Positions 10,556 to 60,236 of a stretch of DNA of 64,000 bases are shown here, one piece after another. The position numbers and the translations under genes are program-made. The notes beneath the pieces were generated by a model, which worked only from the letters and a program-made list of their open reading frames with translations, made no database searches and was not told the DNA's origin. Numbering within the stretch: the stretch's first letter is position 1; every line of letters starts with the position of its first letter. The stretch spans positions 4,079,437 through 4,143,436 of the forward strand of contig CP154954.1 of NCBI GenBank assembly GCA_039621445.1. The letters run 5' to 3'. Origin of the DNA: Euglena gracilis (lineage: Eukaryota).

Positions 10556-10778
10556 TTCCCAGGGGACACTGTACGATTCGGGACATGATTGTCACAGAAA
10601 CAAACCTGGTTGTCTTGTGATGCAGTGGGGTAACCCTCGTCGGAGGGTTTTGCAGTGAAATGGGGAGGCTCCTCAAGAAGCGGGGCTATCTGTGGCATGG
10701 CATACAATTCGGCAATAGCATCTGTTTTGCACACACAATTGCACCCTGGTGACAAAACCTTACACCTGATTGAGAGCC
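10556..10778 (-). pseudogene. Exon-like relic block (CNCVCxTDAxAELYAxPQIAPLLExPPHFT...QVCFC...NRTVSPGNL)
   Basis: About 75 codons are open with no indels both here and at 53707-53936 (about 11 synonymous versus 19 replacement codons by eye). Preceded on the minus strand by poly-T + (t/c)ag, like a conventional acceptor. Confidence 0.5.
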
Positions 10779-11059
10779 TAAAAAAAAATATTCAAAAAAC
10801 AAATCTGTAGGAAAAACACTTGACAGTGTGAAAGAAAAGAAGACAAGGCTTCTCTTTACTGAAAACGTATACTGCCACAAGCAATATTGTAAATAACCAA
10901 TTGTTATGCAACAATTATTACCTCAGAAAAAAATGCATTTAAGACCTCCACCAAGCACTTTACGGTATACTCTCGGAAGCACAAAAGAAATACGGTTATT
11001 TTACATTGCCTTTCCATTTCTCAAATTCAGAATCCTTCCACCTCTTCAGCTGGACAAGA

Positions 11060-11270
11060 ATTCCAGTATCGGCAGTTGTGTGGTTTTCATGATAAGGCGA
11101 AGTCGGTGGCAATCAACAGAGCCACACGACCACCGTGGAAGAACGGGTGGTGTGGTCACCGCCGGGGTGAGCGGAGGGCTCCTGCCGAATGGACCGTGGG
11201 TCCCAACACTGCTGTCCGAGCTGGCGGGGCTGGAGGGAGTGGGGTGTGCAAGGCAAGGACAGGGTCATAC
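11060..11270 (-). pseudogene. Exon-like relic block (PTPSSPASSDSSVGTHGPFGRSPPLTP...RLRLIMKTTQLPILE)
   Basis: Gap-free high-identity match to 54210-54420 with an excess of third-position changes. A plus-strand frame shares the same third positions, so the strand is inferred from neighbouring blocks. Confidence 0.45.
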
Positions 11271-13685: not shown

Positions 13686-13941
13686 CCCCCCCCCCAGTTG
13701 TATGACCGGGTTCCTGCAACCTGTGACCGGGGGTGGGGTAGTCATAACACCCCCATAACCTGCAACCTGTGACCGGGGGGTGGTCAAAACGAGGGGGCGG
13801 TCGTAGGTAAGGTGGTGCTAAATTTTTCGCAACCTGTAACCTGTGACCGGGGGGGGGGGGGTCATAACACCCCCATGACCTGCAACCTGTGACCGGGGGG
13901 TGGTCATAAATGAGGGGTGGTCATACGACTAGGGGGGGGGG
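13686..13941. mobile_element. TA-TSD MITE (Tc1/mariner/pogo-like), poly-C/poly-G termini
   Basis: ta|ccccccccccagttgtatgacc ... ggtcatacgactaggggggggg|ta, with internal repeats of cctgcaacctgtgaccggggg; four copies in the window. Confidence 0.85.
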
Positions 13942-27000: not shown

Positions 27001-27866
27001 AAACCATTTCTTGTGACCTGAAACATCAAAATAAGCAATATTTCCAGGATGTCCTGAAAAAAAATGAGTTTAAAGGTGCCCTTCACCCACAGCAATTTAG
27101 TCTGAAAATGAGGCACAATCAACAATTGCGCACATCAACCACCCAAACGTTCTTGTCGCTGTCTTGCACGGCATTCACACGGGGTCAGTCAAGGGGTGGA
27201 AAGGTCCCTTTGCCACCCGAGAGTGCGCGACTCGCGGTGGCTGGGCGCGTGTGGAAGGCCCAGCGCTGGAGGTACAACCAGCGCTGGCGGTGGAGACCGG
27301 AGGGGGGAGTGCTCCGGCTAAGTGGCAGAGGCACAACGGCGGGAGGAAGAGACCGCCAGGGCCGGAAAATGGGACGCCGAAAACGAGCCGCGGTTTCAAC
27401 ATGTTTATTTGAAAAAAACATCAAACACAACAAAAGTTCGCTGGCCCGTCAGTTTTCACAGATCCCCGTGGGGGGTACTTTGAAACCCGAGGGGGAGACC
27501 GGGCGACCCGAGGAATTCGATCCCGTTCCCCAACTTCACATCAAAGATAATTCGCCTGAGTTGGAAATGCAAAAGAAGCATTTCTGTCGATGGGATTAGA
27601 GAGTTGTGGATCAGAAATTTACAAAATGATATACCCAACACAAAAAAACGAGTTTGAAGAACAGCGTTATTGGTGCTTGCACACAGGTTGGTTCCAAATG
27701 AGGAAACCCATAGAAACGCCAACAAGGGCCAAAGGCAAAAGCCTCTGTGATCAACAGCCCATGGAGGCAACCACTTAGCAAGGTTCCCAGCAGCTTGTGC
27801 CGCTTCCACACCTCAATCGTAGCAAGCTTGCAGCACGGCTTCCGGGCTCCGACTCGGAGCCCTGAA

Positions 27867-28168
27867 CAGGCTTGTGCTTACCGACCGGGGGGGGAGGGGG
27901 TGGGTGGGTGCTAAAGGGTGTCCCCAGCAGGCACACCCCCGGGGAGGGGTGGGGTCTGGGGGGACCAGAAATTTTTCATTGAAAATGGATTTTTTTACTG
28001 GACCCCCGGGCACCTTTGCCGCCGGGGTCGGAGGGGGGTGCCTGCTATGTGCAGGCATGCCCAAAAAACCCTACCTCCTCCGGGGGGGGTCGGACGGGTG
28101 CTATAGGGTGCCTGCCCCTAGCACCCCCCCCCCCCCGTGGGGTAGGCACCCGACTAAGCACAAGCCTG
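27867..28168. mobile_element. hAT-like MITE with perfect 14-bp CAG...CTG TIRs
   Basis: caggcttgtgctta / taagcacaagcctg; gctccgac duplicated (27846-27853, 28169-28176) and single at the empty site 23161-23168. Confidence 0.85.
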
Positions 28169-32657: not shown

Positions 32658-34026
32658 CTTAGGCGGCCCACAAAATTATGTTTCTGGATGGCCCGCTGAT
32701 CTGCGGTGTCACGGCCCCTTTGTCACACCGTTCATCAACGGCGTCATGGGCACTAAACCTCATCCCTTGAAAGACAAAATTGTGCTTATAAGCGCAAATG
32801 AGCGCACCAACATAATCATGTTGGTGCGCATTTGCGCCCATAAACACAATTTTATCCTTCAAGGGTTGGGCTTCTTCTGCCGGTCTGTGCAGATCAGGGA
32901 ATTTCTTAAGGACCCCCCGGGGGGGGGGGGTCCAGCCTCCGGCTGGCAAAAAGGCTGCTGGCTGGAAATGAGCTGCTGGCTGGACCCCCCGGGGGGGGGG
33001 TCCGGGGCTGGAGGGGTCTGGGCTGTGCTGGGTCGGTTAAAAACAAAAATTTCTAACAAATTTTTCCCGTTTTCGACAATTTGATGGATAGAGCTAGCTC
33101 AAGGCTGGGGGGCTGCGATGGAGGAAGCTTTGATGAGGGGGAAAAATGCATGGATAGTTGAACTGGGCCGCCCAATTGGCTGGACAGCCTGCGGCCGGCT
33201 GGCCCGGCCTCCGGCCGGGCTGGACCCGACTTTATTTCAGTCGCCCCCCGGGGTGGGGGGATCCCAGCCCGAATTTGGACTGCTGGCTGGATTTGAGCTG
33301 GCTGGCTGGCTTGGCCCCCCCCCCCCCCGAGGGGGTAGGGACCCTCTGGCTTAAGAAATTCCCTATTATATATAATTATTAATTATATAATATAATTACT
33401 ATAATATAATACTATATAATATAATTATATATATTTTATAGTATAAATTGGGTGGGCGACACCCGTCCCTTTCATTCACTGTGCACCCTATTTCTTCCCC
33501 TCTGCGCACCCTTTGCCAAACACCCCGCACTTGTCTTACTTACCCTATGTCCTTCCCGCCGGCTTGGTCACACCACACCCACACACCCCGGCACTTCCTC
33601 CCTGCGCTTTACCAAACTCCCCAAAAACACCACACCAAGGCGCCGCAAGAAAAACAGTTCTGCAATCACCCAGGACACACAGCGCCGGCAGATCGGGTTC
33701 ACCGGGGGAAACAACAAAAAAGAGCAAAAAGGGCAGTAAAGATCCTGTGCCGCTTTTTTTTTGTGTTTTTTTTCCACTCCCGGGGGGGAAGGTCCCGGGG
33801 TTTTCGAAATTCCGAGCCAATTTCCGGAGCCCCAAAAACACCATTTCCCCCCAAAGTAACAGGGGTCACACCGCCAAAAACAGAACTTTGCTCATTTTTT
33901 GCACCTCTTGTTGCCGTGTTTTCAAACCCCCTGGAGCCACACAACCGGAAAAAAAATTAATTAGGTAATTTGCGCAAATGCACAAACCAACACGAAAAAG
34001 CTTAAATGCAAATCCGGCTGCTTGAG
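32658..34026. mobile_element. CTTAGG-ended TIR element with nested hAT-like MITE
   Basis: Left cttaggcggccc, right gcaaatccggctgcttgag; flanks ttttt/ttttg (4/5 match). Confidence 0.6.
32895..33365. mobile_element. hAT-like MITE related to the candidate intron family
   Basis: TIRs cagggaatttcttaag / cttaagaaattcccta (15/16); internal aaaaaggctgctggctgg motif shared with 36270-36584. No TSD seen; an AT-rich microsatellite follows. Confidence 0.75.
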
Positions 34027-36047
34027 TTTTGGGTCATTTCCCGGTTAAAAATGTCGAAATAAATTTACGGGTCAAAGATGTCGACAAAAAAAAAGTTGCT
34101 TTTTTTTATACCGAAATCATCTTTTTGGGCTTCCCGGACTGTGCTGAGCCGGGCCGCCGGGCCATCGGCCAGGCCAGGCCTGGCCGCTGGGCCGTCAGGC
34201 CGGGCCGGGCTGTTGGGCTGCCAGCCTTGCCGCCAGGCTGGGTCGGGGCCAGGCCGGGCCGCCCAGGCTGCCACGAGCCCCAAACATCTGCTGCAGCATG
34301 GCACCATCAGGCACGTAAAGAGCTCCGCTCTGCACAAAACCTGGAGCGTACCCTGGGGTCCACAGACAAATGGAGGGAAGGGGAGCCCGGGCCGGCGAAA
34401 ACTTCGCCATATGGGAACTCCCCCCCATGGGCGCTTGACCCGGGCCACGATGGAAGGCAAGGCGGGGGGGGACAACCTTAGGGGGCCAAATTTGTACCTT
34501 TGTGATTGTACCTCCCCCCCCCCACGCCCAGTGAACACTAAGGTGACATTCTAGACGGTTCGAACAGGGGGGCGTTCATTGGGCATCGGGGTACGATTTC
34601 TGTGTAGATAAGGATTATGGTGACGATCTAAACGGTCCGAACAGCCCCTGTTCATTGGGCCAATGGCATTCATTGGGCATGGGGGGGGTTAGAAATGTGG
34701 TGGGCCAGAGGCAAAATAAACCAAAACCCTTAAAAATAGGAAGGCCAAGCTTTAGGGGGGCCAAATTTGCATGGAAGGAGGGGTGGGGTGGTGGCAAGCT
34801 ACTGAGGGAGGCCATTTCGGCATTTGACTTTCAATTCATTACTGGAGCCATTTATCACCGTTTCAGGGTCACTATTTGACCAGTTTGCCACTTCTGGCCA
34901 GTCATTTGTTGCGAGCTAGCACAATGACAAGCTGCTTTTAAAAATTCACGTCGAATTTCAGACATTTTTAGGAATGTGTTACCCTTTTTCATCATCATAT
35001 TGAATTTTTATCGGCGCAATAATTTTCATTTTTGGTCTCTTGACCTTTTTTATTAGCAAAAAGCAAAAAAAAATATACATACAAATTCATGGAGCCATCG
35101 TATCCAAAAAGATCGCATTGGACCAGAAGAGAATACGGCGCACCCGCTTGAATCCATGCCAACATATCTTCATTTTCAGAAGGTCTTCAGTTGCATCAAT
35201 TAATTGACAAATCAACCACAGAAACACACACGTCAACCAGGAAAAGCTGCCTTTTTCGGCAAGAATGTTGTGCAGAGTGTGGTCCAGTGGTGCCGCATTG
35301 GTGCGCTTCTGATGGTGGGGACTTGGGTGGGCCAGAAAGCGGTCAGCCGGAATAAAAGTGTTTTTCACACAAGACACCCGCCTGGCTGGGACGGCAACGG
35401 TGAGCGCATTTGACTGTTTGGGGGGCTTCCAAGGCAGCCAACCCAGCATTGGACTCAAGGCCAGGCAGGAGGTCCAACTAACCCTTGGGGTTTAAGGAGC
35501 CGGGGAGCGCCACCCCCCCAAACTGTGGCATGATGGTATATCGGTGTGGCACAAAAGAACGAGGAGAGTAAAACCTAATCAGGACCCCCAGAAATGGGAT
35601 GTGGCTATGCAAATCAGAAGAAAATAAACGAGTTGTTACATCACTTATCCTGCCGAGTTCTGTTACCAGAAAATTATTCTGACACTATATTGTTGATGTA
35701 TAATATCAATACGATTAAAATATATGTATAATACGTGTAATATAATTTTTTTCGTGTTCATTTGGGGGTATCCTGGATGTTTGAGTAATTTCCTGCTGAT
35801 AAATACCATAAGATATATTGCCGTGATAAGAGTAAAACACGTCCCCAAAGAACTGTGATGTCAAACCAGCCAATTACCAGACTTGTTTCTCCCAGAACCT
35901 GGGCGGAGGAAAAAAAGTGCGCCACGAGTTCTTGATCATCACAGAAAGGCTTGAAAATACCCATAATAAGAAGGAAAGAGTTTTAAAAATGTTCAGAAAA
36001 TATTCAGAAAAAATTCAAAAAGGATCATATCCAAAAAAAATAGCTAA

Positions 36048-36740
36048 TCAGAATCGAACGCTGACTGGGTGTATCCTGTGATTTAACACACATAACACAT
36101 TTTCGATCCCTGGGATGAGGTATGCACTGCGGTGGTCCCATCCACCCCCCCCCCCTTCGGCTAGGAGTTGAACACATTCCGACGGTTGCCACGTTGGAGT
36201 ATCAGGAGAGGCAGGAAGAGCTAAATGTCTCGAAAGCAGCTGAAGCTTACAAGAGCACAAGTTTGGAAACAGGGCGTCGCCTGAGAAACCCACCAGGGGG
36301 GGGGGTGCAGCAGGACAAAAAGCACAAAGGCTGCTGGGGCAGAACTGGATCGAAATAAAGTCAAAGCTGCAAAAAAAGAAAACAAAAAGTCAACTATGCA
36401 AAAAATTTGATTTTCGACCCAAATATTTAGCTAGACAAAAGTTTTCCGGGCCATTCTTGCCTGCATTATTTGGTCCGTTTGTGCCCCTCAAAAGATTCTT
36501 GCTGGGACTGTAAAAACAAAGGCAGCTGGCTGGTGGACCCTCCCACCAGGAGATGAGGTGCCCTTCGGCTTAAGCGACGCCCTGCATGGAGTGCGAGACA
36601 CCTCGTCAAACAAAGAGGGGAGTGAACAGACGCGGGTCATGGGTGTTTGCACCTGGTGTAGGCACAGCAATAGCAACCAGGGCACGGGGTCTTGGCGGGG
36701 TCTTTGTAGAGACTGAATGACAGCTGCAAGCCTTGTACCG
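36048..36740 (-). pseudogene. Two exon-like blocks (36588-36740 and 36048-36264) that join in frame across the candidate intron
   Basis: Spliced frame: RLAAVIQSLQRPRQDPVPWLLLLCLHQVQTPMTRVCSLPSLFDEVSRT-P-NLCSCKLQLLSRHLALPASPDTPTWQPSECVQLL. The paralogue at 4060-4163 gives NLCSHKPQLL...DTPTWQRSECVQLL with about 9 synonymous codon changes and a 3-nt indel. Confidence 0.55.
36265..36587 (-). other. Candidate non-conventional intron / hAT-like MITE (323 nt)
   Basis: TIRs cagggcgtcgcctgag (starts 36270) and cttaagcgacgccctg (ends 36584), 14/16. On the minus strand it reads c|atgCAG...CTGtttcc|a; removal restores the reading frame. Confidence 0.65.
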
Positions 36741-36933
36741 GTATTGAGAGGCGATCATTAGGACGATAATCAGAGGGTGCCATCATGGGATCATCAGAGG
36801 GGATCATGGGGCGCCATTTGTTGTTGTTTGTAATTATTTGCAAGTAATCCAGAAATTGCAACGACGCTTGCGTTGACTGGGGACATCCACCCAGAATTGG
36901 CTGTAACCAATGTGAACTGAAAGGTTGATCCTA

Positions 36934-37299
36934 CCCCCCCCCCCTAGTCGTATGACCGGGTTCCTGCAACCTGTGACCGGGGGGGGGGTGGTCATAACAC
37001 CCCCATGACCTGCAACCTGTGACCGGGGGGTGGTCATAGATGAGGGGGCGGTCGTAGAAGTGTGTGAAAACTGTCCCAAAATGGCAGATTTACCCCCCCA
37101 AAATGTCCCATTTTTCAAAAATCCGGCGCTTCGCGCCGGCAGGGGGGACCTTATTTTGGGGGGGTCCATTTCATGGATTTTTGCTCGGACCGGCCAGGGG
37201 GGGGGGACTTATTTTTGGGGGTTAAATTTTTCGCAACCTGCAACCTGTGACCGGGGGGTGGTCATAAATGAGGGGTGGTCGTACGACTAGGGGGGGGGG
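36934..37299. mobile_element. TA-TSD MITE carrying a captured foreign segment
   Basis: gatcc ta[element]ta atatc here versus gatcc ta atatc at the empty site 42450-42451; 37060-37222 matches the 2.7-2.9 kb repeat. Confidence 0.9.
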
Positions 37300-38999
37300 T
37301 AATATCACCTCTGAAATGCTCACAAAAAGCAAAATGTCACCGAAAATGAATAAATCAGCCAGTAGCTGCCAGAAACAGCCAGAAGCAGCAAAGCGGCCTT
37401 TAAAAAAGGGGGCACAAAAGGCTGATACAGGTCAAAAATAGCCAAATGGCCACAAAATGGGCGAAAGCGGCCAGGAACAGCCAGAAATGGCCAACTGTTG
37501 GCTAAAAAATAGTGGAAGCGGCCAAAGCCTTCAGAATCAGCCAAAACGACAAAATGCAAACAAAAGCAGTCAGAAACGGCTAAAGGTGACAAAAAACAAA
37601 GGGCTAATGGAGGCCAGAATTGCCAAAAAAAAAAAAGCAGCCAGAAGCAGCCAAAAAGAAGCAAATGTAGCAAAGTAGCAAAACCAGATGCAACAGCGGA
37701 AAGTGGCCTATAACTGCCAATAATGGCCTCAACGATCAAAAAAAAAATGGCTTAACTGCAGTTATCCATAATTATTCATAGTTGGGGTTTTGGGCTTGTC
37801 CGCAGCAATCTGTAATCATCCGTAGTTTTCTGTTTTGGTATGAGCACCAATTCCTGACGACTTACAGTTGAAAAAAAAAATGTCACAAATACGACGAAGG
37901 AGGAAACGAAAATTATTTGGTCAAATATTGGTCTGTACTTCAATTCATTCATGTCAAGGAAACAAACACTCTAAGTTAAATGAGGGACATTGGCATCATA
38001 TATGAATGTTGCAGAATCAGAGACCAGGCTCCTTGTCTTGTGGGCTGATACTGGTGGGTAGGTTGAAGGTCAGCTATCACGGGGTGGGGGGTGTCCACTG
38101 TAACCTGGGTGGGTTCGCAAAATGGCTCCAAGAAACTGGTCCGCGGCGTGGTGTGCTGCTGCTCCATTGCACCCATCGGGTGCATTGCACATATTTTCAT
38201 TCTTGCAAAATATATCAAATAAACACCGGGCAAACCGGAGCTGTCTGGACTTCCGTTCTTCTCGACTCTTCTCTGGACTGAAAAGGGTCTTAAATTTTGT
38301 TGGGGGGGTGCTTTGCCTTTTTCCTTCTTCAAAATTCAACTTTCAAAAATATCACCACATAGATCCTGCCTGTGTTGCAGAAATGCGTCCTTGCGTGCAA
38401 GGTATGTGTGAAGAGGTGCTGGTTCGCTTGGGTTTATTTCAAATTAAAAAAAGCTAAAATTCGGGCAATAGCGCTTCAGGAAGGCCTTTCTTTGGAAACG
38501 TTAGGCGAACACCACTGGGTGGCTCCCCTCATTTAGCATCGTCTCGGCTGTTTGTGACAAAAGTTGAATGGCAGCAACAGGGCGGGGCGACCTTCCTCCC
38601 TCCCTCTCATCCAGCGAACTTTGCAACTAATCAGTTGCATCAGTGATCCACGGCTATTGTTTGAATGGATAAACGACCTTCTGCAGCAGCAACGGTGCAA
38701 ACAAAAAATTTGCTGTTGACAGGCAGTAGACAAGGACGGAAAATGGACGAAATTCCTGACTCGGAACCACAAAACAGGCAAACTTTATATTGGGAGCTGG
38801 AGGTGCAAAAATGAAGTATCCACTAGGGGGGCTGCATGGGAAGACCCGTTGGGGGACCTCTTGTGTGTCAAACAGGTTGGTAGCAAACACCGGCTGTTAC
38901 AACAGTTGGTACTGGTGCTGACGTGATGCCTGATCAGGCTTGGGTGCTGCAGCCGCCTGTAAAGGCACACGGAGCGATGATATATCACACACCACATAT

Positions 39000-39449
39000 T
39001 ACAAATGCGCCAACAAACAAAATTTGTTTGTGCGCTCTTATGTGCACACCAACTACTTGAGGAAACTCGTATGCGGATGGTTGGCATGGGAAGGAAGGAT
39101 CGTTCCCTGAGCATCCCATTTCTTCCCCCCTGTGCATCCCTTGCCAAACACCCTGCATTTACCTTCCTCACCCTTGCTTGTTCACACCACACCCACACAC
39201 CCCGGCAATTCCTGGCGAGCTCCCAGGGGTTTCGACGTGGAGATCCCATTTCTGGACCCCAAAAACACCATTTCTGGCCAAAGTCCCATGGGTCGCACTC
39301 CTAAAAACAGAATTTTGTTCATTTCCTCGCACTCTCTTGTCCATGTTTTCAAACCCCCAGAGGCACGCGGCCAAAATAAAAAATTTGTTAATATGCGCAT
39401 ATGCGCAAACCAACACGAAAAAGCTTAAGTGCGAATCCGGCCGCCCAAG
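39000..39449. mobile_element. Right part of a CTTAGG-family element
   Basis: Ends aagcttaagtgcgaatccggccgcccaag; interior matches 22260-22820. Confidence 0.65.
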
Positions 39450-40206
39450 TGTCTGTCCGTCTCAGTAACACACTTGCAACGCACCCGCTATGCCGGAGCA
39501 GTCAGTTCCAATGGAACAGACCCAGATTCATCCGGGATCATTTTCAAAGGAAGCGTGTTTGGGCCATTCCAAATGCCTTTCCAAAATAATTGTGGTTTCT
39601 GCCCACATCCACAGACAGAGGTTGTCCGATTTTCAGGTACCAAACGATTCAATGGCAAATAATTCAACGAGAAAAAAGAAATCAGAAAGAGAATAGGAGG
39701 AGGCAAAAAAGGGTGATAGAAATGAGAGTGACTGGAAAAGAGAAGCAACACATGTGAACTTGTAGCAGGAAGTGTAACCTAAAGGAATGCGGCAAACATG
39801 GCCCGCACGGTGGTTATATGGCGACGGAGGCTGTGATGCGGAATGGAAAGCATGGGAATGGCCGACCACTGGAATGTAAAGGCCAAAACCACATTGGTCC
39901 ATCCGTGTGTGGGTGGGTGCCAAACTGACTTGAAATGCCACGAGCACGCACTTTTCACTGATTTGGGCGGCACAACTCGCACGTTAAATAATTTTGGTTG
40001 GTGTGTGCAAACACATACGTCCGGAATATGATTTCTTTGCAAGCGCTTCCAGAACTTGGATCGAGGGGAGCACAAATGTGACAGATCTGAGCGACTTCTC
40101 TTATTCAGGGCTGTCACTCTCCTACCTTGGCCAAATTTCTTGTATTCTTCCGGATTTGTTTTATTTCTGCATGGCACAAAACCCCGGCGTGCACGACAGG
40201 CCCGGA

Positions 40207-40447
<241 letters not shown>

Positions 40448-40946: not shown

Positions 40947-41471
40947 AGGTAAAAAAATATGTGAAATATTTCTGATTTAACAGTTCCAAACAACTGCCCA
41001 AGAAAGCTAGACCATGATAATGAAAACAAACAGATTCCGAAACATTCGCTTCACAAAATAGACACTCTGCCAATTGAGCTGCAGTAGAATAGGATATATT
41101 CATCAACAAGATGACCTTTTCCCAGAATTTGGGCTGAGAAAAAACAACGGCGCCAGGAGCTCTTAATCATTACAGAAAGGCTTGAAAATAAAAAGAAGAA
41201 TGAAAGAGTTTAAAAATGATTTAAAAAAAAAGTCAGATGGATAAAAAAGCTTATCAGAAATCGAACCCTGACTGAATGTATCCTGTGATTTAACAAATAT
41301 AACACATTTTCGACCCCTGGCCCTGGGATGAGGTATGCACGGCGGTGGTTCCATCCACCCCCCCCCTCTGCCTAGGAGCTGGACACATTCCGACGGTTGC
41401 CATGTTGAGTGTCGAAGGCATGAAAACCTAAATGTAGCTAAAGCAGCTGAAACTTACAAGAACACAAGTTT

Positions 41472-41842
41472 GGAAACAGGGAGTCGCCTGAGAAACCCGC
41501 CGGGCTGGACAAAGGCTGCTGGGGTAGATCGAGGTAGAAAAAAAAGTCGAATCTGCAAAAAAATACCGGTCCAAAAGACCAAATATGCAAAAAAAAAAGT
41601 GATTTTTGACCCAAATATTTAGCTAGCCAGCACTTTTCCGGACCATTTTTTCTATTCCGTTTGTTCCCCTCAACAACAAAAAAAAACATTAACATGTACC
41701 CTTCTTTTTGGGACTGCAAAAAAAATCAAACGATTTATTTATATAGTCGATAGGGGGGGACCAAGGCTGGAAAAAGGCAGCTGGCTGGTGGACCCTCCCA
41801 CCCAGGGATGAGGTGCCCTTCGGCTTAAGCGGCGCCCTGCAT
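41472..41842 (-). other. Candidate non-conventional intron / hAT-like MITE (third copy)
   Basis: TIRs cagggagtcgcctgag (starts 41477) and cttaagcggcgccctg (ends 41839); 8 extra bases at the right junction; the adjacent exon-like block has a stop. Confidence 0.55.
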
Positions 41843-42026
41843 TGATGCATGGAGTGCGAGGAGACACCTTGTCAAACAAAGAGGGGAGTGAACAGATGCG
41901 GGTCATGGGTGTTTACACCTGGCGCGGGCACGGCAACAGCAACCAGGGCACGGGGCCTTGGCGGGGTCTTAGTAGAGACTGAATGACAGCTGCCAGCCTT
42001 GCATCGCTATTGAGAGGCGATCATTA

Positions 42027-42279
42027 CCCCCCCCCCCTTGCCGTGCGACCGGTTCCTGCAACCTGTGACCCGGGGGGGGTGGCCGTAACACCCATAACCT
42101 GCAGCCTGTGACCGGGGGGTGGTCATAAATGAGGGGGCGGTCGCAGGTAAGGTGGTGTTAAATTTTCCGCAATCTGCAACCTGTGACCGGGGGGGGGGGT
42201 CATAACACCCCCATGACCTGCAACCTGTGACCGACCGTGGTCGTAAATGAGGGGTGGTTGTACGACAAGGGGGGGGGGG
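42027..42279. mobile_element. TA-TSD MITE
   Basis: Inserted at gatcat ta; empty site at 36759-36760; right junction altered. Confidence 0.85.
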
Positions 42280-43979
42280 CTGGAAGGACGATAATCAGAG
42301 GGTGCCATCATGGGATCATCATAGGGAATCATGGGGCATTGCTATTTGTAATTATTTGCAAATTATCCAGAAATTGCAACGACGCTTGCGTTGACTGGGG
42401 ACATCCACCCAGAATTGGCTGTAACCAATGTGAACTGAAAGACTGATCCTAATATCGCCTCTGAAATGCTCACAAAAAGCAAAATGTCACCGAAAATGAA
42501 TAAGTCAGCCAGTAGCTGCCAGAAACAGCCAGAAACAGCAAAGCGGCCTTTAAAAAAAGGGGGCACAAAAGGCTGATACAGGTCAAAAACAGCCAAATGG
42601 CCACAAAATGGGCGAAAGCGGCCAGGAACAGCCAGAAATGGCCAACTATTGGCTAAAAAATATGGAAGCGGCCAAAACAATCAGAAGCAGCAAATACGAA
42701 AAAATGCAAACAAAAAGAAAAAAAAAGAGTCAGAAAGAAAAGTCAGAAAGAAAAAAAAACAAAAGCAGTCAGAAACACATACCGTTGAATTTTTTTGTAA
42801 TAAATACGACGAAGGAGGCAACGAAAATTATTTGGTCAAATATTGGTCTGTGCTTAAATTCATTCATATCTAGGAAACAAACACTCTAAATTAAATGAGG
42901 GATATTGGCATCATATATCAACTACATGTTGCAGAATCAGAAGCCAGGCTCCTTGTCTTGTGGGCTGATACTGGTGGGTAGGTTAAAGGTCAGCTATCAC
43001 GGGGTGGGGGGTGTCCACTGTAACCTGGGTGGGTTCGCAAAATGGCTCCAAGAAACTGGTCCGCGGCGTGGTGTGCTGCTGCTCCATTCAACCCATCGGG
43101 TGCATTGCACATATCTTCATTCTTGCAAAATATATCAAATAAACACCAGGCAAACCGGAGCTGTCTGGACTTCCGTTCTTCTCGACTCTTCTCTGGACTA
43201 TAGAATTTTTTACCCCCAGCGGGGGGTCTTTTTGAAAAACCAGTCAGTCACTTTACAATCAGTCACTACAATGGGTCAGCCACTCTGCAATCCTAAGAAA
43301 ATTGACTCTGCCTGTGTTCCATGAATGTGTTTCGGTGTGCGAATCGGCGTATGAAAATCATGGTTTTCTTTTAGCCAAAATCCTGCCTCCAATAGAGGAC
43401 CCCAAGGGTCCTGTGGGTATGCGCTGGGGGGGGGGGGGGCTGCACGGAAAAACCTGGCGGGGATGGTCGGCCAGATTGGGGGGTCGGCAGGGATGGATGG
43501 GAAGCCTTGAGGGGGGGGGTAGGGTGGGTCGGACCCCCCCTCCCGACACGGGGGGGGGGGGTGGGTCGGACCCCCCCCTCCTACCTCGAAACTGAGGGGG
43601 GGCCGAAAATTTTTCGATTTCATGGACGGGCAAAGGGCCGGAAATCGGGTCGGAATCGGTCAAAAAACCCTGATTTTTCTTTGAAAATCGATCCAAAGAT
43701 GCTCATTTTTTGAATTTTTTTTGAACATGTTTTTGGGGGAAAACACCAACATATCAAAAAATGGGCAATATGGCCAAAAGTCAGCAAAAGGGGTGTTTTT
43801 TGCTCATTTTCCGGCGCGCAGCGCCAGAAGAAAATTTTCTGCTATTTTTGGCACCTGTCAAGGTGGCGGGGGGGTGGGGGTTCCGGACCCCCCCCTCCCA
43901 ACATCTTGGGGGGGGGGGTGGTCCGGACCAGGTTTTGAATAGTGCTGAGCTCTTGATAAGCGCGCCCCCACCACCGACG

Positions 43980-44491: not shown

Positions 44492-46654
44492 CAAGCACCT
44501 ATAGTTGACACCCCGATTTTTGCCATTTTCGGCCATTTTCGGCCATTTTCGGCCATTTTCGGCCATTTTCGGCCATTTTCGGCCATTTTTTCGTATAGGT
44601 GGGGGATAAAATTACCTTAAAATCCTTTCATACCAACAATGCATTTGATCATTCATGCAACGTGAAAGTAGTTGTGAGCAACAAATCAAGCCAACGCATC
44701 CAAAGAGGTCCGTTTGGAATGGGTGCTCAGGGATTAAAGAGGTCAAAAAAAATTGGTTGCAATATCGTGAAAAATCTAAATGGCACAAATCCATCACTTC
44801 AAAGAAGCCTTGATGTTAAATTTCATCTGTCATGATGAGATGCTCATCCGTCTGGATGTGGCGAAGTTGGGAGAAAATCCGCTCGGCTTGAGCTCAGAGC
44901 AAAAGCAAGCAAACGTGTGATCAGCACATAATGTTGAAATAGTATATGTTTGGCATCAAATGCGCTCACCCAATTGCCCAATTTCTGCAGCATATACATC
45001 TTGTCCAGCATCTGCATCTTGTTCAGGATCTGCATCCATTTTTTCTGTGGAGAGGACCGGGGGAATGGGAGGGCAGGGAGGAGGGGAGGAGAGGGAGGGC
45101 ACCTGGCCGGGTTTGGGGAGAGGCTCCGCACAGGGTGCTCGCCCACCCGCAACCGGCCGGGCCTGCGGGGCTCGGGATACCAGCCCGAATGAGCCGGGGT
45201 TCGGGACACCTGTTGCTCCGCGCGGTATGGGCCTCCTTGTTGGCGTTGTTGGCGTTGCTTGGGCTGCACCAGCTGCTACGATGATGACGATGGTGGCGGC
45301 AACTGCACCGCCTGGCGTCTGGCGTTGATGTCCTTGCTTGGAATCAGCAGCTGCATAGATGGTCAGCCGCAAGCCGTCGAGCTGCTCCTGAATGATGAGT
45401 AGAGCGTCGAGCAGCGTGTGTAGGGAGGGGGTAGTTGGGGAAGGGAGAGGAGGGGCAGAGGCATCGGGAGAAACAGAGAGGGTGCGCTGCGCAATCCCAG
45501 TGCAGGAGGATCTAATGGGTTTCATGGCTTCGGGTTTCGGGCTTCGGGTCTTTGGTCTTCTTGGGATGGGGGTACCGAGCAAGGGGCGGTGGGGCCCCGG
45601 AGAGCTGTGGGGGTGGTTGCCAGTCCAGGGGCAGGGAATGTGGGCTCAGGAGTGGGAGTGGGACCGGGAAGGGGACCGGGAACGTAGCGGACGTAAATGG
45701 GAACGATGCAGCGTGCTGTGCTGCTCCTGGGTGTGGACCTCCTCCTCCGGGTCCTCAACGATGCAGGCTCCGACAGGTGGCAATCCATTGCATCTGGTCC
45801 AGTATCTGCAACCATTGCATCTTGTCCAGTATCTCCATTCAATTCATCTTGTCCAATATTTGTGTCTTGCCTAATGTCTTCATCCATTGGCTCCCAACCT
45901 AGCAAAATGATCACAAACCCCCCCCAAAAAAATGACCACAAAAAGCCCAGAATTCTCCACAAAAAGCCCAAAAAGCACCCAAAATGACCTAAATGGCTTG
46001 AAATAACCAAAATTTGCCCAAAAACGCCAACAATGTCCACAAAAAAAGTGAAAAATAACCCAAATCGCCAAAATGGCGCAAAATGGCCGGAAATGTCATA
46101 AAATGAGCTCATATTGACCCAAATTAGCACAATACTCGCCAAATCAGTGCAAAATACCCCAAAATCAGCAAAAATTGATCCAAAAATGGCCAAAATGGGC
46201 GTAATACTGGGGATCTGTGGAGAAATTATCCCAAAAATGGGTTTTATTCTTCAAAAAATACAAAAAATGACAGCATTGCCCTTGTCACCAAAATTTTCTG
46301 AAATGGCATCAAATCATTCAGCTTTGACCCAAATAACCCTTTCGGAGGTGGTTCTTTGAGCAGCATGTGTTGCAGTGCCAGGCATAATGGCAGGAGAACA
46401 GAGTGCACAGCAACAAGAATCAGTCGCACTGGAAATCGCCCCTCAGGTGTCGGGCAAAGCTGTTGGGCAAAAAAAAAAACTGGAAAATTTTTGCAATGAT
46501 TTTTTTCTCATTTTCGCCCATATTCGGCCATTTTCGGCCATTTTCGGCCATTTTCGGGACCCCCACCTATAGAGCCCAAAATTTCATTTTCGGCCATTTT
46601 CGGCCATTTTCGGCCATTTTCGGCCATTTCGGCCATTTTGACTATAGGTGCTTG
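44492..46654 (-). mobile_element. Nested hAT element with transposase C-terminal relic
   Basis: Perfect 14-bp TIRs caagcacctatagt / actataggtgcttg and a perfect 8-bp TSD gccatgat. Minus strand 44830-44925 gives LITRLLAFALSS/AERIFSQLRHIQTDEHLIMTDE (one frameshift), resembling the hAT dimerisation motif. Confidence 0.9.
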
Positions 46655-47500
46655 GCCATGATGGCCATCATTGGTCATGATGGCCATCATGGGTCAACCA
46701 TGATGGCCATCATTGGTTGACCCATGATGGCCATCATGACCAATGATGGCCATCATGGCCCATGATGGCCCTCATGGGCCATGATGGCCATCATTGGTCG
46801 TGATGGCCATCATTGGTCATGATGGGCATCATGGGTCATGATGGCCATCATGGGTCGTGATGGCCATCATGGGTCATGATGGGCATCATGGGTCATGATG
46901 GCCATCATGGGTCATGATGGCCATCATTGGTCGTGATGGCCATCATTGGTCCTGATGGCCATCATTGGTCCTGATGGCCATCATTGGTCATGATGGGCAT
47001 CATGGGTCATGATGGCCATCATTGGTCCTGATGGCCATCATTGGTCATGATGGCCATCATTGGTCCTGATGGCCATCATTGGTCCTGATGGCCATCATTG
47101 GTCCTGATGGCCATCATTGGTCCTGATGGCCATCATTGGTCATGATGGGCATCAGGGGTCATGATGGCCATCATTGGTCCTGATGGCCATCATTGGTCCT
47201 GATGGCCATCATTGGTCCTGATGGCCATCATTGGTCCTGATGGCCATCATTGGTCCTGATGGCCATCATTGGCCATCATTGGTCCTGATGGCCATCATTG
47301 GTCCTGATGGCCATCATGGGTCATGATGGCCATCATTGGTCCTGATGGCCATCATTGGTCCTGATGGCCATCATTGGTCATGATGGCCATCATTGCCCAT
47401 GATGGTCATCGTGGGTCATCATGCACATTATGACCCATGATTGGCATCACCGGTCATGATGCGCATCATGGCCATCACGGGCCATGGTGGCCATTATGGT
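46655..47500. repeat. 19-bp minisatellite (tgatggccatcattggtcc)n
   Basis: About 40-45 units with a palindromic core tgatggccatca; the array begins at 44460 and is split by the nested hAT element. Confidence 0.95.
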
Positions 47501-47940
47501 CGAAAAACGCTCATTTTCGGCTCAAAAACAGTTTTTCCGGGTCCGGGAGGCCAAAAAACATCGTTTTGGGCAAAAAATTTTTTTCGATTTTTTTCGACTT
47601 TTTTGACCCGGTTTTGGCCCGAAGTCAATGGGTCGGCGGCCCAGAACGGGGCGCTGGCGGGTCGAAAAACGCTCGTTTTCGGCTCAAAAACAGTTTTTCC
47701 GGGTCCGGGAGGCCAAAAAACATCGTTTTGGGCAAAAAATTTTTTTTCAATTTTTTTCGACTTTTTTGACCCGGTTTTGGCCCGAAGTCAATAGGTTGGC
47801 GGCCCAGAACAGGGTGCTGGCGGGTCGAAAAACGCTCATTTTCGGCTCAAAAACAGTTTTTCTGGGTCCGGGAGGCCAAAAAACATCGTTTTGGGGCAAA
47901 AATTTTTTTTCGATTTTTTCGATTTTTTTTCGAAAGTCGA
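47500..47940. repeat. ~163-bp tandem units (2.7 copies; another at 44250-44457)
   Basis: Repeated ggtcgaaaaacgctcattttcggctcaaaaacagtttttccgggtccgggaggcc. Confidence 0.9.
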
Positions 47941-50900
47941 ACAGTGGAAAACGTGTACAAAATGGCCAAAATCGGCCGAAAAACGGCCGTATCTCGGGCA
48001 AGGCGGTGAGCTGCGATGAAACCAAAATCACAGTAGATAGAGCGTTCCAAGGGCTTCAATTTAGGTCTCTGGACATTTCCTTTGATTTTTGCATCATTTT
48101 CGAGAAATTTTGAAAACATCGATTTTTTGACCCCCCACCCCCCGAAAACGGCAAAGTCGAACAGAGGGAAAAGTATACAAAACGGCCAGCTGCGCCGAAA
48201 ACGGCCGTATCTCGGGCTAGACGGGGCGTTGTGGGGAAATCAAAAGATGGGGCGTTCCAAGGGCTTCAAATTAGGTCTCCGGACATTTCCTTTGATTTTG
48301 CTTCATTTTGGAGATATTTTGAAAATTGACATTTTTTGGCCGTCCAAAGGGGGGGGGGGCTTATCCAGGGGGGGTTGGCGAATCCTACCCAGTTTGGACC
48401 CCTTCGCGCGTGAATAACTCGGGCCTGGCGGGGAGTTGGGGGTCAAACCCAGGTGATTCGGAAACTAGGAATCCAGTCGCTCGTGACTGAAAAAAAAAAT
48501 TTCGGGAACGGGGCCGGGATCATGGTGATAATCCGCCGGTTCCCGAGGTGGCCCCGAGGGGGGGGGGGAGGGGGGGTTCGGGGGGGTTTTCCCCCAGTGG
48601 TAAGCTTCGCTCTTACCCATAAAGGGATAAGAGCTCAGCGACCCCCCCCCCCTACCACCTTACCCCCCCAGGGGGGGGGTGGTCGGGACCCCCCCCCTAC
48701 ACCTACCTCAATACCGAAGGGCTTCCCATCCATCCCTGGGGGTCGAACCCCCACCCATCCACGCCCACAAAAAAAATTGACCTCAAAATCGACGCCCTGA
48801 GCAAGATGGCCTGTGGGGGGGGGTCGACCATCCCGCCCACCCCACATTACCCATTGGGTTTCGGGGTTTCCGGATAAAACCCAGGAAGAACCACCAGCTA
48901 CACCCCTCCCTCTCATTCTTCATGTCAGTATTCTTTCTCTGCCTGAGTGTCTGCCTGTCTGTCTCATTGAGACACATGCAACACACCCGCTATGCTGGAG
49001 CAGATAATTCCAATGGAACAAACCCAGAATCATTGAGGATCATTTTTTCGAAGGAAGCATATATGTTGGCCATTCCAAATGTCCTTCCAAAAAGGATCGT
49101 GGTTTTCCCCACGTCCCACTGAGGTTGTCCTATTTTCTAGCACTCAAATAATTCAACGAAAAATACAAAGAACAAAGAAATTAGAAAGAGAATGGGAGGA
49201 GACAAAAATGGACGATAGAAAATGAGAGTGACTGGAAAAGAGCAGCAACACATGTGAACTTGTAGCAGGAAGTGTAACCTAAGTAACCTAAAGGAATGCG
49301 GCAAACATGGCCCGCACGGTGGTTATATGGCGACGGAGGCTATGTGGAATGGAAAGCATGGGAATGGCCACCCACTGGGATGGAAAGGCCAAAGCCACAT
49401 TGGCCTATTTTTAACCGTGGGTGGCTGGGTGCCAAACTGACTTGAAATACCACGAACACACACTTTTCACTGATTTGGGTGGCACAACTCGCACATTAAA
49501 TAATTTTGGTTTAATTAATTAGTTTGGTTTTCACTGATTTGGGCTGCCCTCTGGAAAGGCCCGGGGGGGCACGGGGGTCCGCAGAGCCTCATATAATCGT
49601 TTTTGGCATGGCATGGTTGGTCCACGCAGTTACGCACAATTGCCCAAGGAAGCCAGAATATGACAATAAAACAAACAGGTTCCGAAATATTCACTTCAAG
49701 AAATAGACACTTTTTGAACTGAAGTGGAATAATGTTTATTTTGTAAAAAAAAATGTTCATTAAACTGTTGTGTACGAAAATGAAAAACAATCTCAAAAAT
49801 ATGTCTTCAACGCCACCACAGAAAAATTCCCTGCACGGGCTGTGGGGTAAAAACAAGTTTCTTTTTTTTCTTTCTGAAGCAGCATGTGGGGGGTGTGGGG
49901 GTCAAATGAATTTTATTTTTTTTTGTGTGGGATGAATGGGGGGAAAATCTCTTTTCTGTTGCATTTCGGTTTTCGTCACCGTCAGCAAGAATAAAGACGG
50001 GTGAAATGAGGAGGAATAAACGGTTCATCTTCGTTCTCCAAAGATCTCGGATTTTACATTGGTGATTACATGGGTGATTAGATAGATTACATGGGTGATT
50101 TCTGGAGGGGAAAATGATGGGGGTTTATGGGAGGGAAGGAGTGTGTGTTTGGGGTGTTTGTCAAGGCATGTGCAGGCTGCAGGGGAAATGGTCCACAGCG
50201 GAGAGAAGGGCCCGGAGTCCCGGGAAGGGCCGGGAGTCTGCCCCAAATTTGCCGCGGGGATGAACCCCCTTCAGACCAGACATTCATTTAGTGTGGTTCG
50301 TAAAAGACGTGTGAACCACAATTTTTTGGGGGTGTCCACATGTGAACCACAAAGTTTTTTTGGTGTCCACAGGTGAACCACAAAAAAATTTTGGGTGTCC
50401 AGAAAAAATTTTGTTGCCCACAAAACTTGATTGAGGATCAAAAAAATCAAAATTTTACAACTAAAAGCGGATTGATCTTGAGACACCTCAGCCAGATTGT
50501 GGACCTTGGCTCCGGCCCAATCCGTAAAGTGTGGCAGCGAATCACACCACCAGGCTTGTATGGGAATCTCGGGGGAGGGGGGGTGGGTGGGAGGACTCCC
50601 CTCCAACCTCCAGTTTTCGGTCGCAAAGGGGTGTAGGGGTATGGGAGGGGGTCGCTGACCATTTAACCTTTCAAAAATTACTGTAAGTAACCGTAAATTG
50701 CAGGTGTGGAATTTGTAAATAATAATTTATGGGAAATTTGCAATGCTAGTCTTTCCGGCCGTCCATTACGTGCAAGTCCCATCAAGAGCTCAACACCATT
50801 CAAAACCTGGTCCAGTTCAGACAGACCCCATCAGGTACCGCCCCAACCAACACTGGCATTAGATTCTTCGGGTGTGCACAACTCCAGTGTCACACCCTCT

Positions 50901-53900
50901 TCCCAACAACCAGGATTTTCAGGTCCAGGTCCATTTCCAAACGGAGATTGAAGACCTCTGGTAGGTGGTTAACCAAGTGCACGTCGCGGACCACGCCCAC
51001 CAGCGGCACTAGGCCTATGGTAAATCCTCAAAAGCCCCTGCCGTTCGTCCCCTGGATTTCGCAGCAGTCACGTTACACAATTGCAGATGATGGCGTTCTG
51101 GCAGCTACCAGGCTGCCAACAACCCCCGGGGGTCGTCGGTACGTTATCCTCTACGACTGGGTCGCCAGAATGGGGGGGGGTGGACATGTTTCAGGTCCAT
51201 GGAAAACTGGCATCATCACAAATGCAAAAATGCAGCAACAAGAGCAACAAAAGCCGGTATTTTGATCCAGTTAACAGGAATATCACAGATGCGCAACTTT
51301 GAATTCCGGAACTCGTTGTTTTTCAAAATACAATTCACGCGCACATTTGCACACCAACCACTGTGAATACTGGATTATTGCAAACTATTGCATAATGAAG
51401 AAATTCCGGTCTCAGATAATGCATCCTGTTCGGTAAATTACGTACTGTGACAAAAAATTTGTCTCTACACCATGCGCAATTTTGTATGACTTAAATTCCC
51501 ACCCATCAGAATCCGATTTTTTTTCAGAATGGCTATTCGTCAAAACGGCGAAAAAATCACTTCGCCATCGGTGAAAACGGCGAAACAGCTTTTTTTTGCT
51601 GTCGGAAAAACGGCGAAAAAGCAAAATGTGAGAAAAATGGCAAAAAGCCGAAAAGCCGAAATGAAACACATACGGGTGGGAACATAATCTCTGAAGGCCG
51701 ATCATTTTTGTGTCGGTTTACATAAACTGTGAAAATGATGAAAAAATCAGTATTGCATTTGCATACAACCGTTCCTCGTCGCACATTGCTCACTGTTCCC
51801 ATTCACAAACCTGAAACAAGTTGACCAGCAGAACAGTCAAAATGCCAATTTTGGACTCTGATGAGCAAATTTTTTTATTGTTTTTTGACCCCAAAAATGA
51901 CCCCCCCAAAAAAGCACATTTCACAGCGATTCCGAAAAAACACACAGGAACAGAGAAAATTTATTTCGGGTTTCTCACCACATCCGCCTCCCCCCCCCCC
52001 AACTCCTCCCCACAACCCCCCCCCCACACCCCCGCCCCCACTAAGGCTAGTGGGGGCGTCAATTTTTGCAGTGTTAAAGCGGGTATCGCGTTTTCCCAGA
52101 TGCGGGAAGTGATTTTAGCAGAAAAACGCTGTGAACATTTGCACATAACTGCAAAATAAAATTCCGTTGCGCCGCCTAAGACCGGACCTGGGGGTGTTAC
52201 TTCCTCTTTTTCAACAACGAGTCTGTCACTTGTTTTTTAGAGAAAGGAATCAGTCATCCCTCCAGGGGGTCGGTCACTCTGGGTTTAAGCACTCCAAATT
52301 CAATAAAAAAAACGAAAAAAATGGACAAATTTTTCCCGGGTCATTTTAACGCTTTTTGCTGAACCCCAAAACCTTTGGGCCAAAAACCAAATACACATCC
52401 TGGGGGGTCACATTGCACAATGAGGTCGAAATGTTGCCCCAAGGCGGTTGTGGGTCAAGTGTACAATCACAACTTTAGTGGGACATTATTATGTCCAATC
52501 TTTTTGAGCATCCCTTATTGAATTATCCATCGCCCAGCCAATGTCTTTGGCGACAAAACTTTCGGATAACACAAAAATTTCACTTCACGTTCCATTCTCA
52601 GGCCGAGAGGAAGATGCTGGGATGTGTCGTCAGCATATGGCACGGGGTCCGTTGGCGCAGTCCCTGGAATCAATGTGATAAAATCTTTGAAAATTGTTTT
52701 CCTAGCAAGCCTGAAAATAATACTGAATGAATCGACTTCAAATTCCTGTTTGAGAAAAAAATATATATAAAAAAAAAACTGCGAAGAGCTGTCGCTAAAC
52801 AGCAGGCAAAGGAACGTGCATAACGGCATACCAACTTCAACATACATTAAAAGAACAAATGTCCTAACGACCATGCAACTGGGCGTAAAAAAAATGGAAA
52901 AGAATGGAAAAGAGCTGGCCAAACTTCTTTTGGGGTGGGGGTTGTGGGTGGCTGGGCCACAATAGAACCGAGTTTACAAAAATGATCTCATTATTTCCTC
53001 AAATGCAAGGAATATTGACAGTTACTTGGCATTAATAATTTTCTTATTGAAGAATTTTCTTGGCATCAAACCAGGGACAGTTGAAAGAATAGGGGTCATG
53101 AACGAAAGAAAGGGTTGTGGTTGGCAGAAGCCTGGCATGGGCACCGAGGCCATGGGGAGCAGTTGGAGACTGGCTATCAGCGGCAGGCCGCTTCGCTTGT
53201 CCATCCTGCAATTGCTCCATTCACACCTTGTTATCCGACAGTCTGCATCCCATCATCCTTTAAAAAAAATAATCAATTTGAAAGAAACAAAAAAAACTTC
53301 AACTTCATATTGCACAACAGGCGGTTCAAATCCTTCCCACCACCACATCCAACGTTAACGACAGTGGTTTGCAGTCCAAAGTCCAGGGTCGTACGACATG
53401 CGGGTGACAGAGGGGGGGAATGAAATGCTAGTGTTGAATGCACTCTGCTAACGGAATATGCGAGAGAATGAAAGCAATGACAACAAAAGACACCATTTGA
53501 GTGTGGGTTTTCCACCCACCATCAAATATGAAAAGAAATTCAGCAACGTGACACAAAGAGATCGAAAAAGCGTTTCGGGGCAGCAATAAAATAACATCTT
53601 TAATTCAGGGCTGCCTAAGGATAACTTTGGGAATCCCAACAAATGAAAGAAATACTTCTGCGCGCAGGCACACACACACACATAGAGAGAGAGGGGGGGG
53701 GGCGGGATAGATTCCCAGGGGACACTGTACGATTCAGGACACCATTGCTGCAGAAGCAAACCTGGTGTTTTTGTAATTCCGTGGGGCAGCCCTCGTCAGA
53801 GGGTTCTGCTGTGAAATGGGGGGGAATCTCCAGAAGGGGGGCTATCTGTGGCGTGGCATACAATTCGGCAGTCGCATCTGTTTGGCACACACAATTGCAC

Positions 53901-59900: not shown

Positions 59901-60024
59901 CCCCCCCCCTGAGCTGCTCATCCCCCTGTTCCCATTCGGACGTAAAAAGTCTCAGGGACAGGACGCAAATATTGCTGGTGTCTTTGGGTGATTGGTGTGT
60001 GCAAATGCTGCAAACCAGCCATTA

Positions 60025-60236
60025 CCCCCCCCCTAGTCGTACGACCGGGTTCCTGCAACCTGTGACCGGGGGGGGGGGGGGTCGTAACACCCCCATAACC
60101 TGCAACCTGTGACCGGGGGGTGGTCGTAAATGCGGGGGCGGTCATAGGTGAAGTGGTGTTAAAATTTTCGTAACCTGCAACCTGTGACCGGGGGGTGGTC
60201 GTAAATGAGGGGTGGTCGTACGACTAGGGGGGGGGG
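60025..60236. mobile_element. TA-TSD MITE
   Basis: ta|ccccccccctagtcgtacgacc ... ggtcgtacgactagggggggggg|ta; absent from the inverted paralogue near 18165. Confidence 0.9.

Follow-up and report, generated by a model that had tools for sequence, protein, structure and literature searches.

A dispersed inverted-repeat element of Euglena gracilis as a candidate nonconventional intron

Introduction

One locus of Euglena gracilis puts in concrete form the question of how euglenids acquired their nonconventional (NC) introns: can a transposon-like element be removed from RNA as an intron of this kind? The locus lies in a stretch of 64,000 nucleotides, here called the window (assembly GCA_039621445.1, contig CP154954.1, forward-strand positions 4,079,437 to 4,143,436), and all coordinates count from its first letter. 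At 36270–36584 the window contains a 315-bp element bounded by terminal inverted repeats (TIRs). Together with eight adjoining nucleotides it forms a candidate NC intron of 323 nt on the minus strand (36265–36587), marked by its fit to the intron code, a terminal stem and RNA junction reads. An earlier interpretation made from the letters alone (the sequence-only reading) had described the element as a hAT-like MITE (a miniature transposable element with inverted repeats) with the geometry of an NC intron, whose removal restores a reading frame.

NC introns make up 71.8% of the introns in E. agilis (PMC12501133). They pair CAG and CTG at +4..+6 and −8..−6, frequently have G/C at +7/−9 and carry a pyrimidine followed by a purine at both junctions (Milanowski et al. 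2016, PMC4770533). Knock-in genetics in Euglena has defined their signature as 5'-N3CDG-/-CH'GN5-6^R, with the caret marking the junction (Nomura et al. 2025, PMC12501133). According to a study cited in PMC11282704 (J Mol Biol 2021;433:166758), excised NC introns take the form of full-length circular RNA. As the sequence-only reading acknowledged, a transposon origin of these introns had been suggested before: a MITE origin was proposed by Milanowski et al. in 2014 (PMC3935182), repeated in a 2024 review that notes repeats resembling target-site duplications (PMC11282704), and taken up again in a 2025 discussion (PMC12501133). A recently gained gapC intron has an eight-nucleotide direct repeat, which was attributed to double-strand-break repair (PMC4770533).

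The evidence presented here partly supports the locus as a promising, unproven candidate for a dispersed TIR element that is removed as a euglenid NC intron. We see an even chance that this is how minus-strand RNA loses the copy at 36265–36587 or a copy with at least 95% identity to it. Four observations carry this assessment: the anatomy of the element, its fit to the intron code, reads across the junction and missing coverage of its interior.

Structure of the element and its family

The element is bounded by two 16-nt arms, CAGGGCGTCGCCTGAG on the left (36270–36285) and, on the right (36569–36584), an arm with the reverse complement CAGGGCGTCGCTTAAG. The arms are 88% complementary (14/16), in agreement with the earlier description of CAG...CTG ends. 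The focal element, here copy B, lies on the minus strand, lacks an open reading frame (ORF) of its own and can be aligned with two further copies on the same strand, copy A (4169–5535, 1367 bp) and copy C (41477–41839, 363 bp), both recognized by TIR motif and alignment. Features for which no strand is named are unstranded. The family has CAGGGCGTCGC-type termini (CAGGG). Allowing up to three mismatches, a degenerate form of the TIR motif has eight matches in the window against 0.72 expected, a number reached in none of 100 shuffles, and the six best matches pair as 4169/5535, 36270/36584 and 41477/41839.

The element resembles a MITE in having TIRs, in being short and in showing no Pfam match in the ORFs that overlap it. 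The three full copies share one site, and copies at unrelated sites are partial. One of these ends at 58867, where a right TIR had been reported and is indeed present: positions 58852–58867 match with two mismatches and internal similarity extends over 58643–58834, which suggests that 58643–58867 is a truncated family copy retaining the right end only. The other is a fragment at 245–336 that resembles the left internal part of the element (76–83% in self-comparison). An assembly gap, a run of 190 N at 7–196, adjoins this fragment. Contigs of a DNA sequencing run (X1, described below) also link the right TIR end to other flanks, with joints 36584 to 36948 and 36570 to 37246 whose sides are only 22–24 nt long. 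A scan of metagenomes with the right-end 20-mer gave a single match (L001), in GC-rich, bacterial-looking coding DNA with no element around it, which we took as chance.

Within the left flank of copy B, the segment 36096–36215 shares several words with the right end of the element (gatgaggt; ggtgg.cc.tccacc; cccttcggct). This pattern suggests that the focal element inserted over the decayed remains of an older relative from the family.

The sequence-only reading had placed the element at the same position in three paralogues. The shared site is confirmed, but the three copies are segmental duplicates of a single insertion. Self-comparison of the window puts copies A, B and C at the identical place in a larger repeated unit, the copies of which are old segmental duplicates of 69–95% identity. 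Thus 3435–6739 matches 35232–38291 at 69–77% identity and 35887–38279 matches 41117–43199 at 75–95%; further matches join 7327–8313 to 39450–40208 and 8725–12016 to 52120–55591. Left-flank identity is 0.47–0.88 between A and B and 0.62–0.93 between B and C. Since the site is shared by all three copies of the unit, one insertion preceded the copying of the unit, and by this comparison copies A, B and C record one event, not three.

Two of the copies have features of their own. Copy A contains a nested 975-bp element (4450–5424) whose 11-nt inverted ends (CTTAGGCGGCC) are perfect and which is flanked by a perfect duplication of 5 bp (TGCAA, 4445–4449 and 5425–5429). The site is uninterrupted in copies B and C, which makes this a clean and datable insertion of a different transposon class. 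In copy C, eight extra bases (cattgatg, 41840–41847) separate the right TIR from the flank common to A and B, and they resemble the eight bases beside them at 5/8 positions, as a footprint or another, decayed duplication would.

Fit to the nonconventional intron code

Read on the minus strand, copy B has the form c^ATG-CAG-G...C-CTG-TTTCC^a, in which every sequence feature of the NC code is present. A purine stands at the start of the intron and of the downstream exon, and a pyrimidine at the end of the upstream exon (...cc^A...C^a). The spacing had been described for copies A and B and reads as stated: copy A has AGG-CAG...CTG-TTTCC, and copy C likewise has ATG-CAG...CTG-TTTCC. The tetranucleotide TGGA occurs on both sides, and as a result all cuts from 36264–36586 to 36268–36590 yield the identical product. 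The borders of these five equivalent cuts are TG..CA, GG..AT, GA..TG, AA..GG and AA..GA on the plus strand and TG..CA, AT..CC, CA..TC, CC..TT and TC..TT on the minus strand. GT-AG, GC-AG and AT-AC borders occur at none of the five on either strand.

Folding, which had been proposed as a check, predicts a terminal stem of 14 bp (duplex energy −32.9 kcal/mol) in both the minimum free energy and the centroid structure. This stem follows by construction from the TIRs, and the fold of the whole molecule is not unusual (z = −1.45).

RNA evidence for removal

Three RNA sequencing runs with the same species label (X21, X22 and X24, from two studies, about 5–6% of each) and the DNA run X1 were placed on 33500–39500. 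RNA reads were required to be at least 95% identical to copy B. Three X21 reads, with at least two start places, end their match at 36267 and continue for 12 letters that correspond to 36591–36602 of copy B and differ from the equivalent positions in copies A and C. The join is precisely the one that had been predicted from the sequence, and it appears in one of the three RNA runs.

The interior of the element is devoid of RNA reads. Summed depths over left flank, interior and right flank are 1.58/0/1.71 in X21, 0.36/0/0.64 in X22 and 1.01/0/0.82 in X24. The interior bin 36314–36514 has a depth of 0 in all three runs, and the bins on either side (36113–36313 and 36515–36715) are covered in all of them. 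In X24 nearly all first mates lie on the plus strand across 34907–38323, the pattern that usually indicates minus-strand RNA.

The junction connects two RNA-supported blocks of the minus strand. The upstream block (36591–36721) is exon-like, though not demonstrably coding, and is defined by depth in bin 36515–36715 in three of three runs. The downstream block (36113–36267) has a left limit known to bin resolution, bin 36113–36313 being covered and bin 35912–36112 empty. A further exon-like block on this strand (38035–38148) is RNA-joined to about 36721 and to 39757. Its loose ends are at 38035, where three X22 reads continue with letters 18/22 identical to 36700–36721 and so imply a join at about 36721, and at 38148, where four X22 reads imply a join to 39757. 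The latter leads into a 22-nt minus-strand block (39757–39778), identified by a 22-letter read continuation with one mismatch. Neither of these joins (36721/38035 and 38148/39757) has GT-AG borders; both have pyrimidine–purine junctions at both ends, and their termini pair at −12.2 and −23.1 kcal/mol, respectively. The whole unit behaves like a candidate weakly expressed, multi-intron, minus-strand transcript with introns of the euglenid type.

Beyond 39778 a minus-strand T-run of at least 8 T takes the place, in the reads, of genomic ...ttag^ with its AG acceptor (39757–39790). A T-run upstream of AG^G may represent a trans-spliced leader, although the CG present in the Euglena leader end (TTTTTTTTCG) is missing from it; alternatively, the T-run at 39779 could be the poly(A) tail of a plus-strand RNA. 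A paralogous 22-mer of 39757–39778 is found at 49257–49278.

Most of the RNA reads placed on the stretch belong to a very-high-copy repeat at 36917–37318 (also present at 13682–13941, 42022–42278 and 60020–60238), for which the summed contig depth in X1 is about 0.9–1.3 million against roughly 40–160 in adjacent bins.

Removal in RNA or in DNA

Several observations weigh against removal of the element from RNA. The junction was seen in only three reads of one run in three, from about 5% of X21, and agreement over the 12-letter continuation is 0.86. Reads that fit the stretch partially predominate (49/54 in X21, 36/37 in X22 and 50/62 in X24), and much of the RNA signal would therefore come from repeats or paralogues elsewhere. 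At 38035 the X22 continuation agrees with copy A at 21/22 positions but with copy B at 18/22, which indicates that these reads come from another paralogue. The flanks show no coding constraint, and the RNA depth behind the label exon-like is about 1. The 8-bp duplication at the focal copy, discussed below, is weak, with just 4–5 of 8 positions matching. Finally, the 36267/36591 junction is identical to an empty site, or to a TGGA–TGGA deletion, in DNA, and X1 depths of 122, 49.4 and 620 over left flank, interior and right flank are compatible with some copies that lack the interior.

The last two points support a different explanation, namely that the transcribed sequence is an element-free version of copy B, either an allele or a recent duplicate. 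The loss could have occurred by deletion between the flanking TGGA repeats, favoured by hairpin-forming TIRs, or by excision. In that case the window would contain a dead MITE among intergenic repeats, and the match of this MITE to the intron code would be a by-product of CAG...CTG termini. The joined form consists of one 8-nt site with unchanged flanks, and such a junction reads the same whether it arose in RNA or in DNA. Besides the drop in X1 depth inside the element, a second haplotype or paralogue, about 97% identical and at roughly twice the depth, is present in the flanks, and reads of other paralogues demonstrably land on this stretch.

The DNA reads also speak against this explanation. 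The 36267–36591 joint is not among the 15 of 32 X1 joints listed, some of which have depths down to 61, and position 36516, inside the element, is covered by a variant X1 contig of depth 94.9, which means that the right part of the element is present in one or more variant copies. Furthermore, the insertion predates the A/B/C split, and a copy at least 95% identical to B would need a secondary, precise loss. The two other non-GT-AG joins in the unit would each require a separate DNA deletion. We consider loss in DNA less likely than removal from RNA, but a real possibility. Because the insertion is older than the split and the reads are at least 95% like copy B, in a flank where B departs from A and C by 7–50%, their source copy should have inherited the element, and parsimony favours removal at the RNA level. 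Removal in RNA rather than in DNA is, in our judgement, the likeliest reading.

A library artefact could also create the junction if, during reverse transcription, the enzyme skipped over the stable TIR stem of 14 bp from one 4-nt direct repeat to the other. Direct repeats combined with a strong stem are known conditions for template switching; here TGGA lies at both ends, which the −32.9 kcal/mol stem brings together, and the three reads come from a single run. Most molecules, however, would stay unjumped, and interior coverage is 0 in three of three RNA runs from two studies, whereas coverage equal to that of the flanks would have given an estimated 4–6 reads there. An origin of the junction by such jumping is quite improbable.

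The flanking sequences

According to the sequence-only reading, removal of the element restores a reading frame. Cutting out 36265–36587 does join two minus-strand ORFs in one frame, leaving an open frame of about 128 codons, and this mechanical result stands. Its biological weight is not supported by the flanks. Alignment of copies A, B and C reveals flank indels of 1, 2, 5 and 11 nt, besides indels of 3 and 9 nt, and the former mean that the reading frame is not maintained between copies. The best-conserved blocks between A and B (36520–36640 and 38000–38160, 0.90–0.95) look exon-like, but high conservation continues into the right 65 nt of the element itself (0.93), where it is as high as in the adjoining flank.

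The idea that the flanks are coding likewise finds no support in the searches. The ORFs 36491–36754(−) and 36051–36389(−) have no Pfam match. For the 88-aa unspliced ORF 36491–36754(−), a collection of 5.8 billion proteins yielded no candidate homologue sharing words with it in the range of 48–154 aa. The four-block transcript assembled in silico has no convincing ATG-initiated ORF. A reading in which a protein-coding gene family has its exons in the flanks, is interrupted by the element and regains its frame on removal is very improbable. An in-frame join has a one-in-three probability by chance.

Target-site duplication and transposon class

The putative 8-bp target-site duplication consists of tttggaaa on the left (36262–36269) and catggagt on the right (36585–36592). 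It is weaker than had been claimed for a decayed duplication. Copy B matches at 4/8 positions and copy A at 5/8, and copy C matches at 3/8 when adjacent bases are taken or 4/8 when its eight extra bases are skipped. With a chance of 0.25 per position, the probability of at least four matches is 0.11 and that of at least five is 0.027, before allowing for choices. When Merlin-type ends (GG...CC) are assumed for the focal element the flanks shift, and the duplication is no better (4/8). The element probably made an 8-bp duplication.

A search of the whole window for CAG...CTG inverted-repeat pairs (at least 12/14, 60–3000 bp apart) returned 20 pairs against 4.4 in shuffles (shuffle maximum 8), most of them low-complexity or chance pairs. 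Over all 20 pairs, 44 of 160 flank positions match (27.5%), no different from chance. At least six matches are reached by one pair in 20 and by none in 40 shuffles, and only this pair, 61347–61724, stands out. It is an independent element of 378 bp whose flanks ctcctggc/ctcatggc match at 7/8 (P about 0.0004 per pair). A paralogous copy at 18453–18747 has flanks cttctggc/ttcctggc (6/8), and a second independent element at 27867–28168 (302 bp, perfect 14-nt TIR) has adjacent flanks that match at 5/8. From these three we infer that CAG...CTG elements with 8-bp duplications exist in this genome.

At the last of these elements the right flank, gctccgac, recurs 8/8 at a distance of 13 nt upstream of the left end (27846–27866). 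The recurring bases form a palindrome with the next seven (gctccgac/tcggagc), which could be a hairpin-repair footprint or filler DNA.

The sequence-only reading also listed a related free element at 32895–33365 and hAT transposase relics in the window. The former does have related termini, CAGGGAATTTCTTAAG (15/16); it ends in CCCTA, however, and its flanks contain no recognisable duplication. The relics were not found: 0 of 397 stop-to-stop ORFs of at least 75 aa in the window have a Pfam match above the curated cut-off, and the eight sub-threshold matches (E 0.0017–0.0093) are unrelated to transposases. The same scan gave no DDE_Tnp_IS1595 match. An 8-bp duplication fits hAT and Merlin equally, and the ends alone do not single out one superfamily.

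Proposed mechanism and significance

We propose that a CAGGG-ended, non-autonomous TIR element of MITE type inserted once into a weakly transcribed unit that would not be protein-coding, probably generating an 8-bp duplication. The host unit would afterwards have been copied, at least three times within the window. With 3 nt added on one side and 5 nt on the other, the element would read N3-CAG...CTG-N5 on the minus strand, a purine would come next, and the 14-bp stem would hold the ends together. Knock-in genetics has shown such a code to suffice for the removal of NC introns, which are of non-spliceosomal type, in Euglena. Removal would take out 323 nt and leave the equivalent of one 8-nt duplication. 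The arithmetic behind this scheme, namely that the 3 + 5 nt outside CAG and CTG equal one 8-bp duplication, had been pointed out before and is sound.

The broader proposition is that the 3-nt and 5-nt spacing exists because NC introns descend from CAG...CTG transposons with 8-bp duplications. We advance it tentatively, as a possibility that is clearly less likely than not. The idea is logically sound and agrees with published fragments, and it draws on one weak and one good duplication. If it were true, removing the element with its 3 + 5 bases would delete exactly one duplication and restore the uninterrupted transcript, whatever the orientation and wherever the site of insertion offers a purine. 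The CAGGG, CAGAC and CAGGC families found here would be survivors of the introner population that supplied euglenid genes with their NC introns, and the NC machinery would in effect be an RNA-level excision system for that transposon class. If instead the junction reads derive from an element-free DNA copy, the locus reduces to an old MITE of the ordinary kind within repeat DNA.

Other features of the window

The window is repeat-rich and eukaryotic in appearance, with 39–57% G+C in 2-kb windows. No tRNA was found in it. Rfam gave 0 matches at gathering thresholds over the whole window and four weak, irrelevant ones at E ≤ 1 within 34800–40000. The segments 61148–61374 and 63774–64000, the latter extending to the window end, are 100% identical over 227 bp and represent either a recent duplication or an assembly overlap. 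Tandem arrays occupy 44522–44589, 46509–46639 and 47498–47929, built from a 10-nt unit (GCCATTTTCG / CATTTTCGGC) and from a 163-nt unit in which CTCATTTTCGGCTCAAAA occurs; an adjacent array (46652–47469) has 43 copies of a 19-nt unit.

Comparison with known systems

Members of the hAT superfamily make 8-bp duplications and their TIR consensus starts with YARNG; Merlin and P elements share this duplication length. The focal element resembles non-autonomous hAT elements in that its CAGGG termini fit the consensus, its 8-bp duplication is plausible, its size is typical of MITEs and it has no ORF. It differs in that no hAT transposase fragment accompanies it within 64 kb (0/397 ORFs), and the other CAG...CTG elements start with CAGAC or CAGGC, outside the consensus. 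Merlin is the DNA-transposon superfamily that has been reported in E. gracilis, where two families have 8-bp duplications (PMC8101967). The Merlin elements share the duplication length suspected here, whereas their TIRs are described as having a conserved terminal 5'-GG-3' in place of the CAG/CTG ends (PMC8101967).

The likeness to the NC introns of E. gracilis and E. agilis (PMC12501133, PMC3935182, PMC4770533) is closer. Shared features are the lack of GT-AG, the paired CAG/CTG, the 3-nt and 5-nt spacers, the pyrimidine–purine junctions with a purine opening the downstream exon, an extended stem that pairs the ends, a junction made 'slidable' by direct repeats, and junction reads consistent with removal. 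In contrast to the published examples, the host transcript here is not recognisably protein-coding, and candidate removal is known from three reads, with DNA-level absence as an alternative. The candidate also differs in recognisably belonging to a dispersed TIR-element family; we found no published NC intron reported as a member of such a family in the literature searched, which included few subscription journals and no supplements. In the same literature no paper names an element family, links the 3 + 5 spacing to an 8-bp duplication, or links hAT or another 8-bp-duplicating superfamily to Euglena introns.

The introners of Micromonas, Aureococcus, dinoflagellates and others offer a parallel, being TIR DNA transposons that are removed from RNA with the target-site duplication aiding seamless removal (PMC11282704). 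The splice sites of introners are spliceosomal GT/GC-AG ones, of which one is recruited from the duplication, and introners occur as many near-identical genic copies (PMC11282704). The element described here has no canonical sites, and its copies are old, at 69–95% identity.

The locus offers a candidate case for a hypothesis that has already been published. The MITE-origin hypothesis (PMC3935182; PMC11282704; PMC12501133) postulates short, non-coding TIR elements whose inverted repeats pair the intron ends and whose junctions carry repeats like target-site duplications, all of which have counterparts here. As published, it names neither an element family nor a superfamily and gives no duplication length. 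Here, on the evidence of a single window, the link 3 + 5 = 8 is explicit and dispersed copies lie outside transcripts. A dispersed TIR family that fits the intron code and is apparently removed in RNA would make the MITE hypothesis directly testable.

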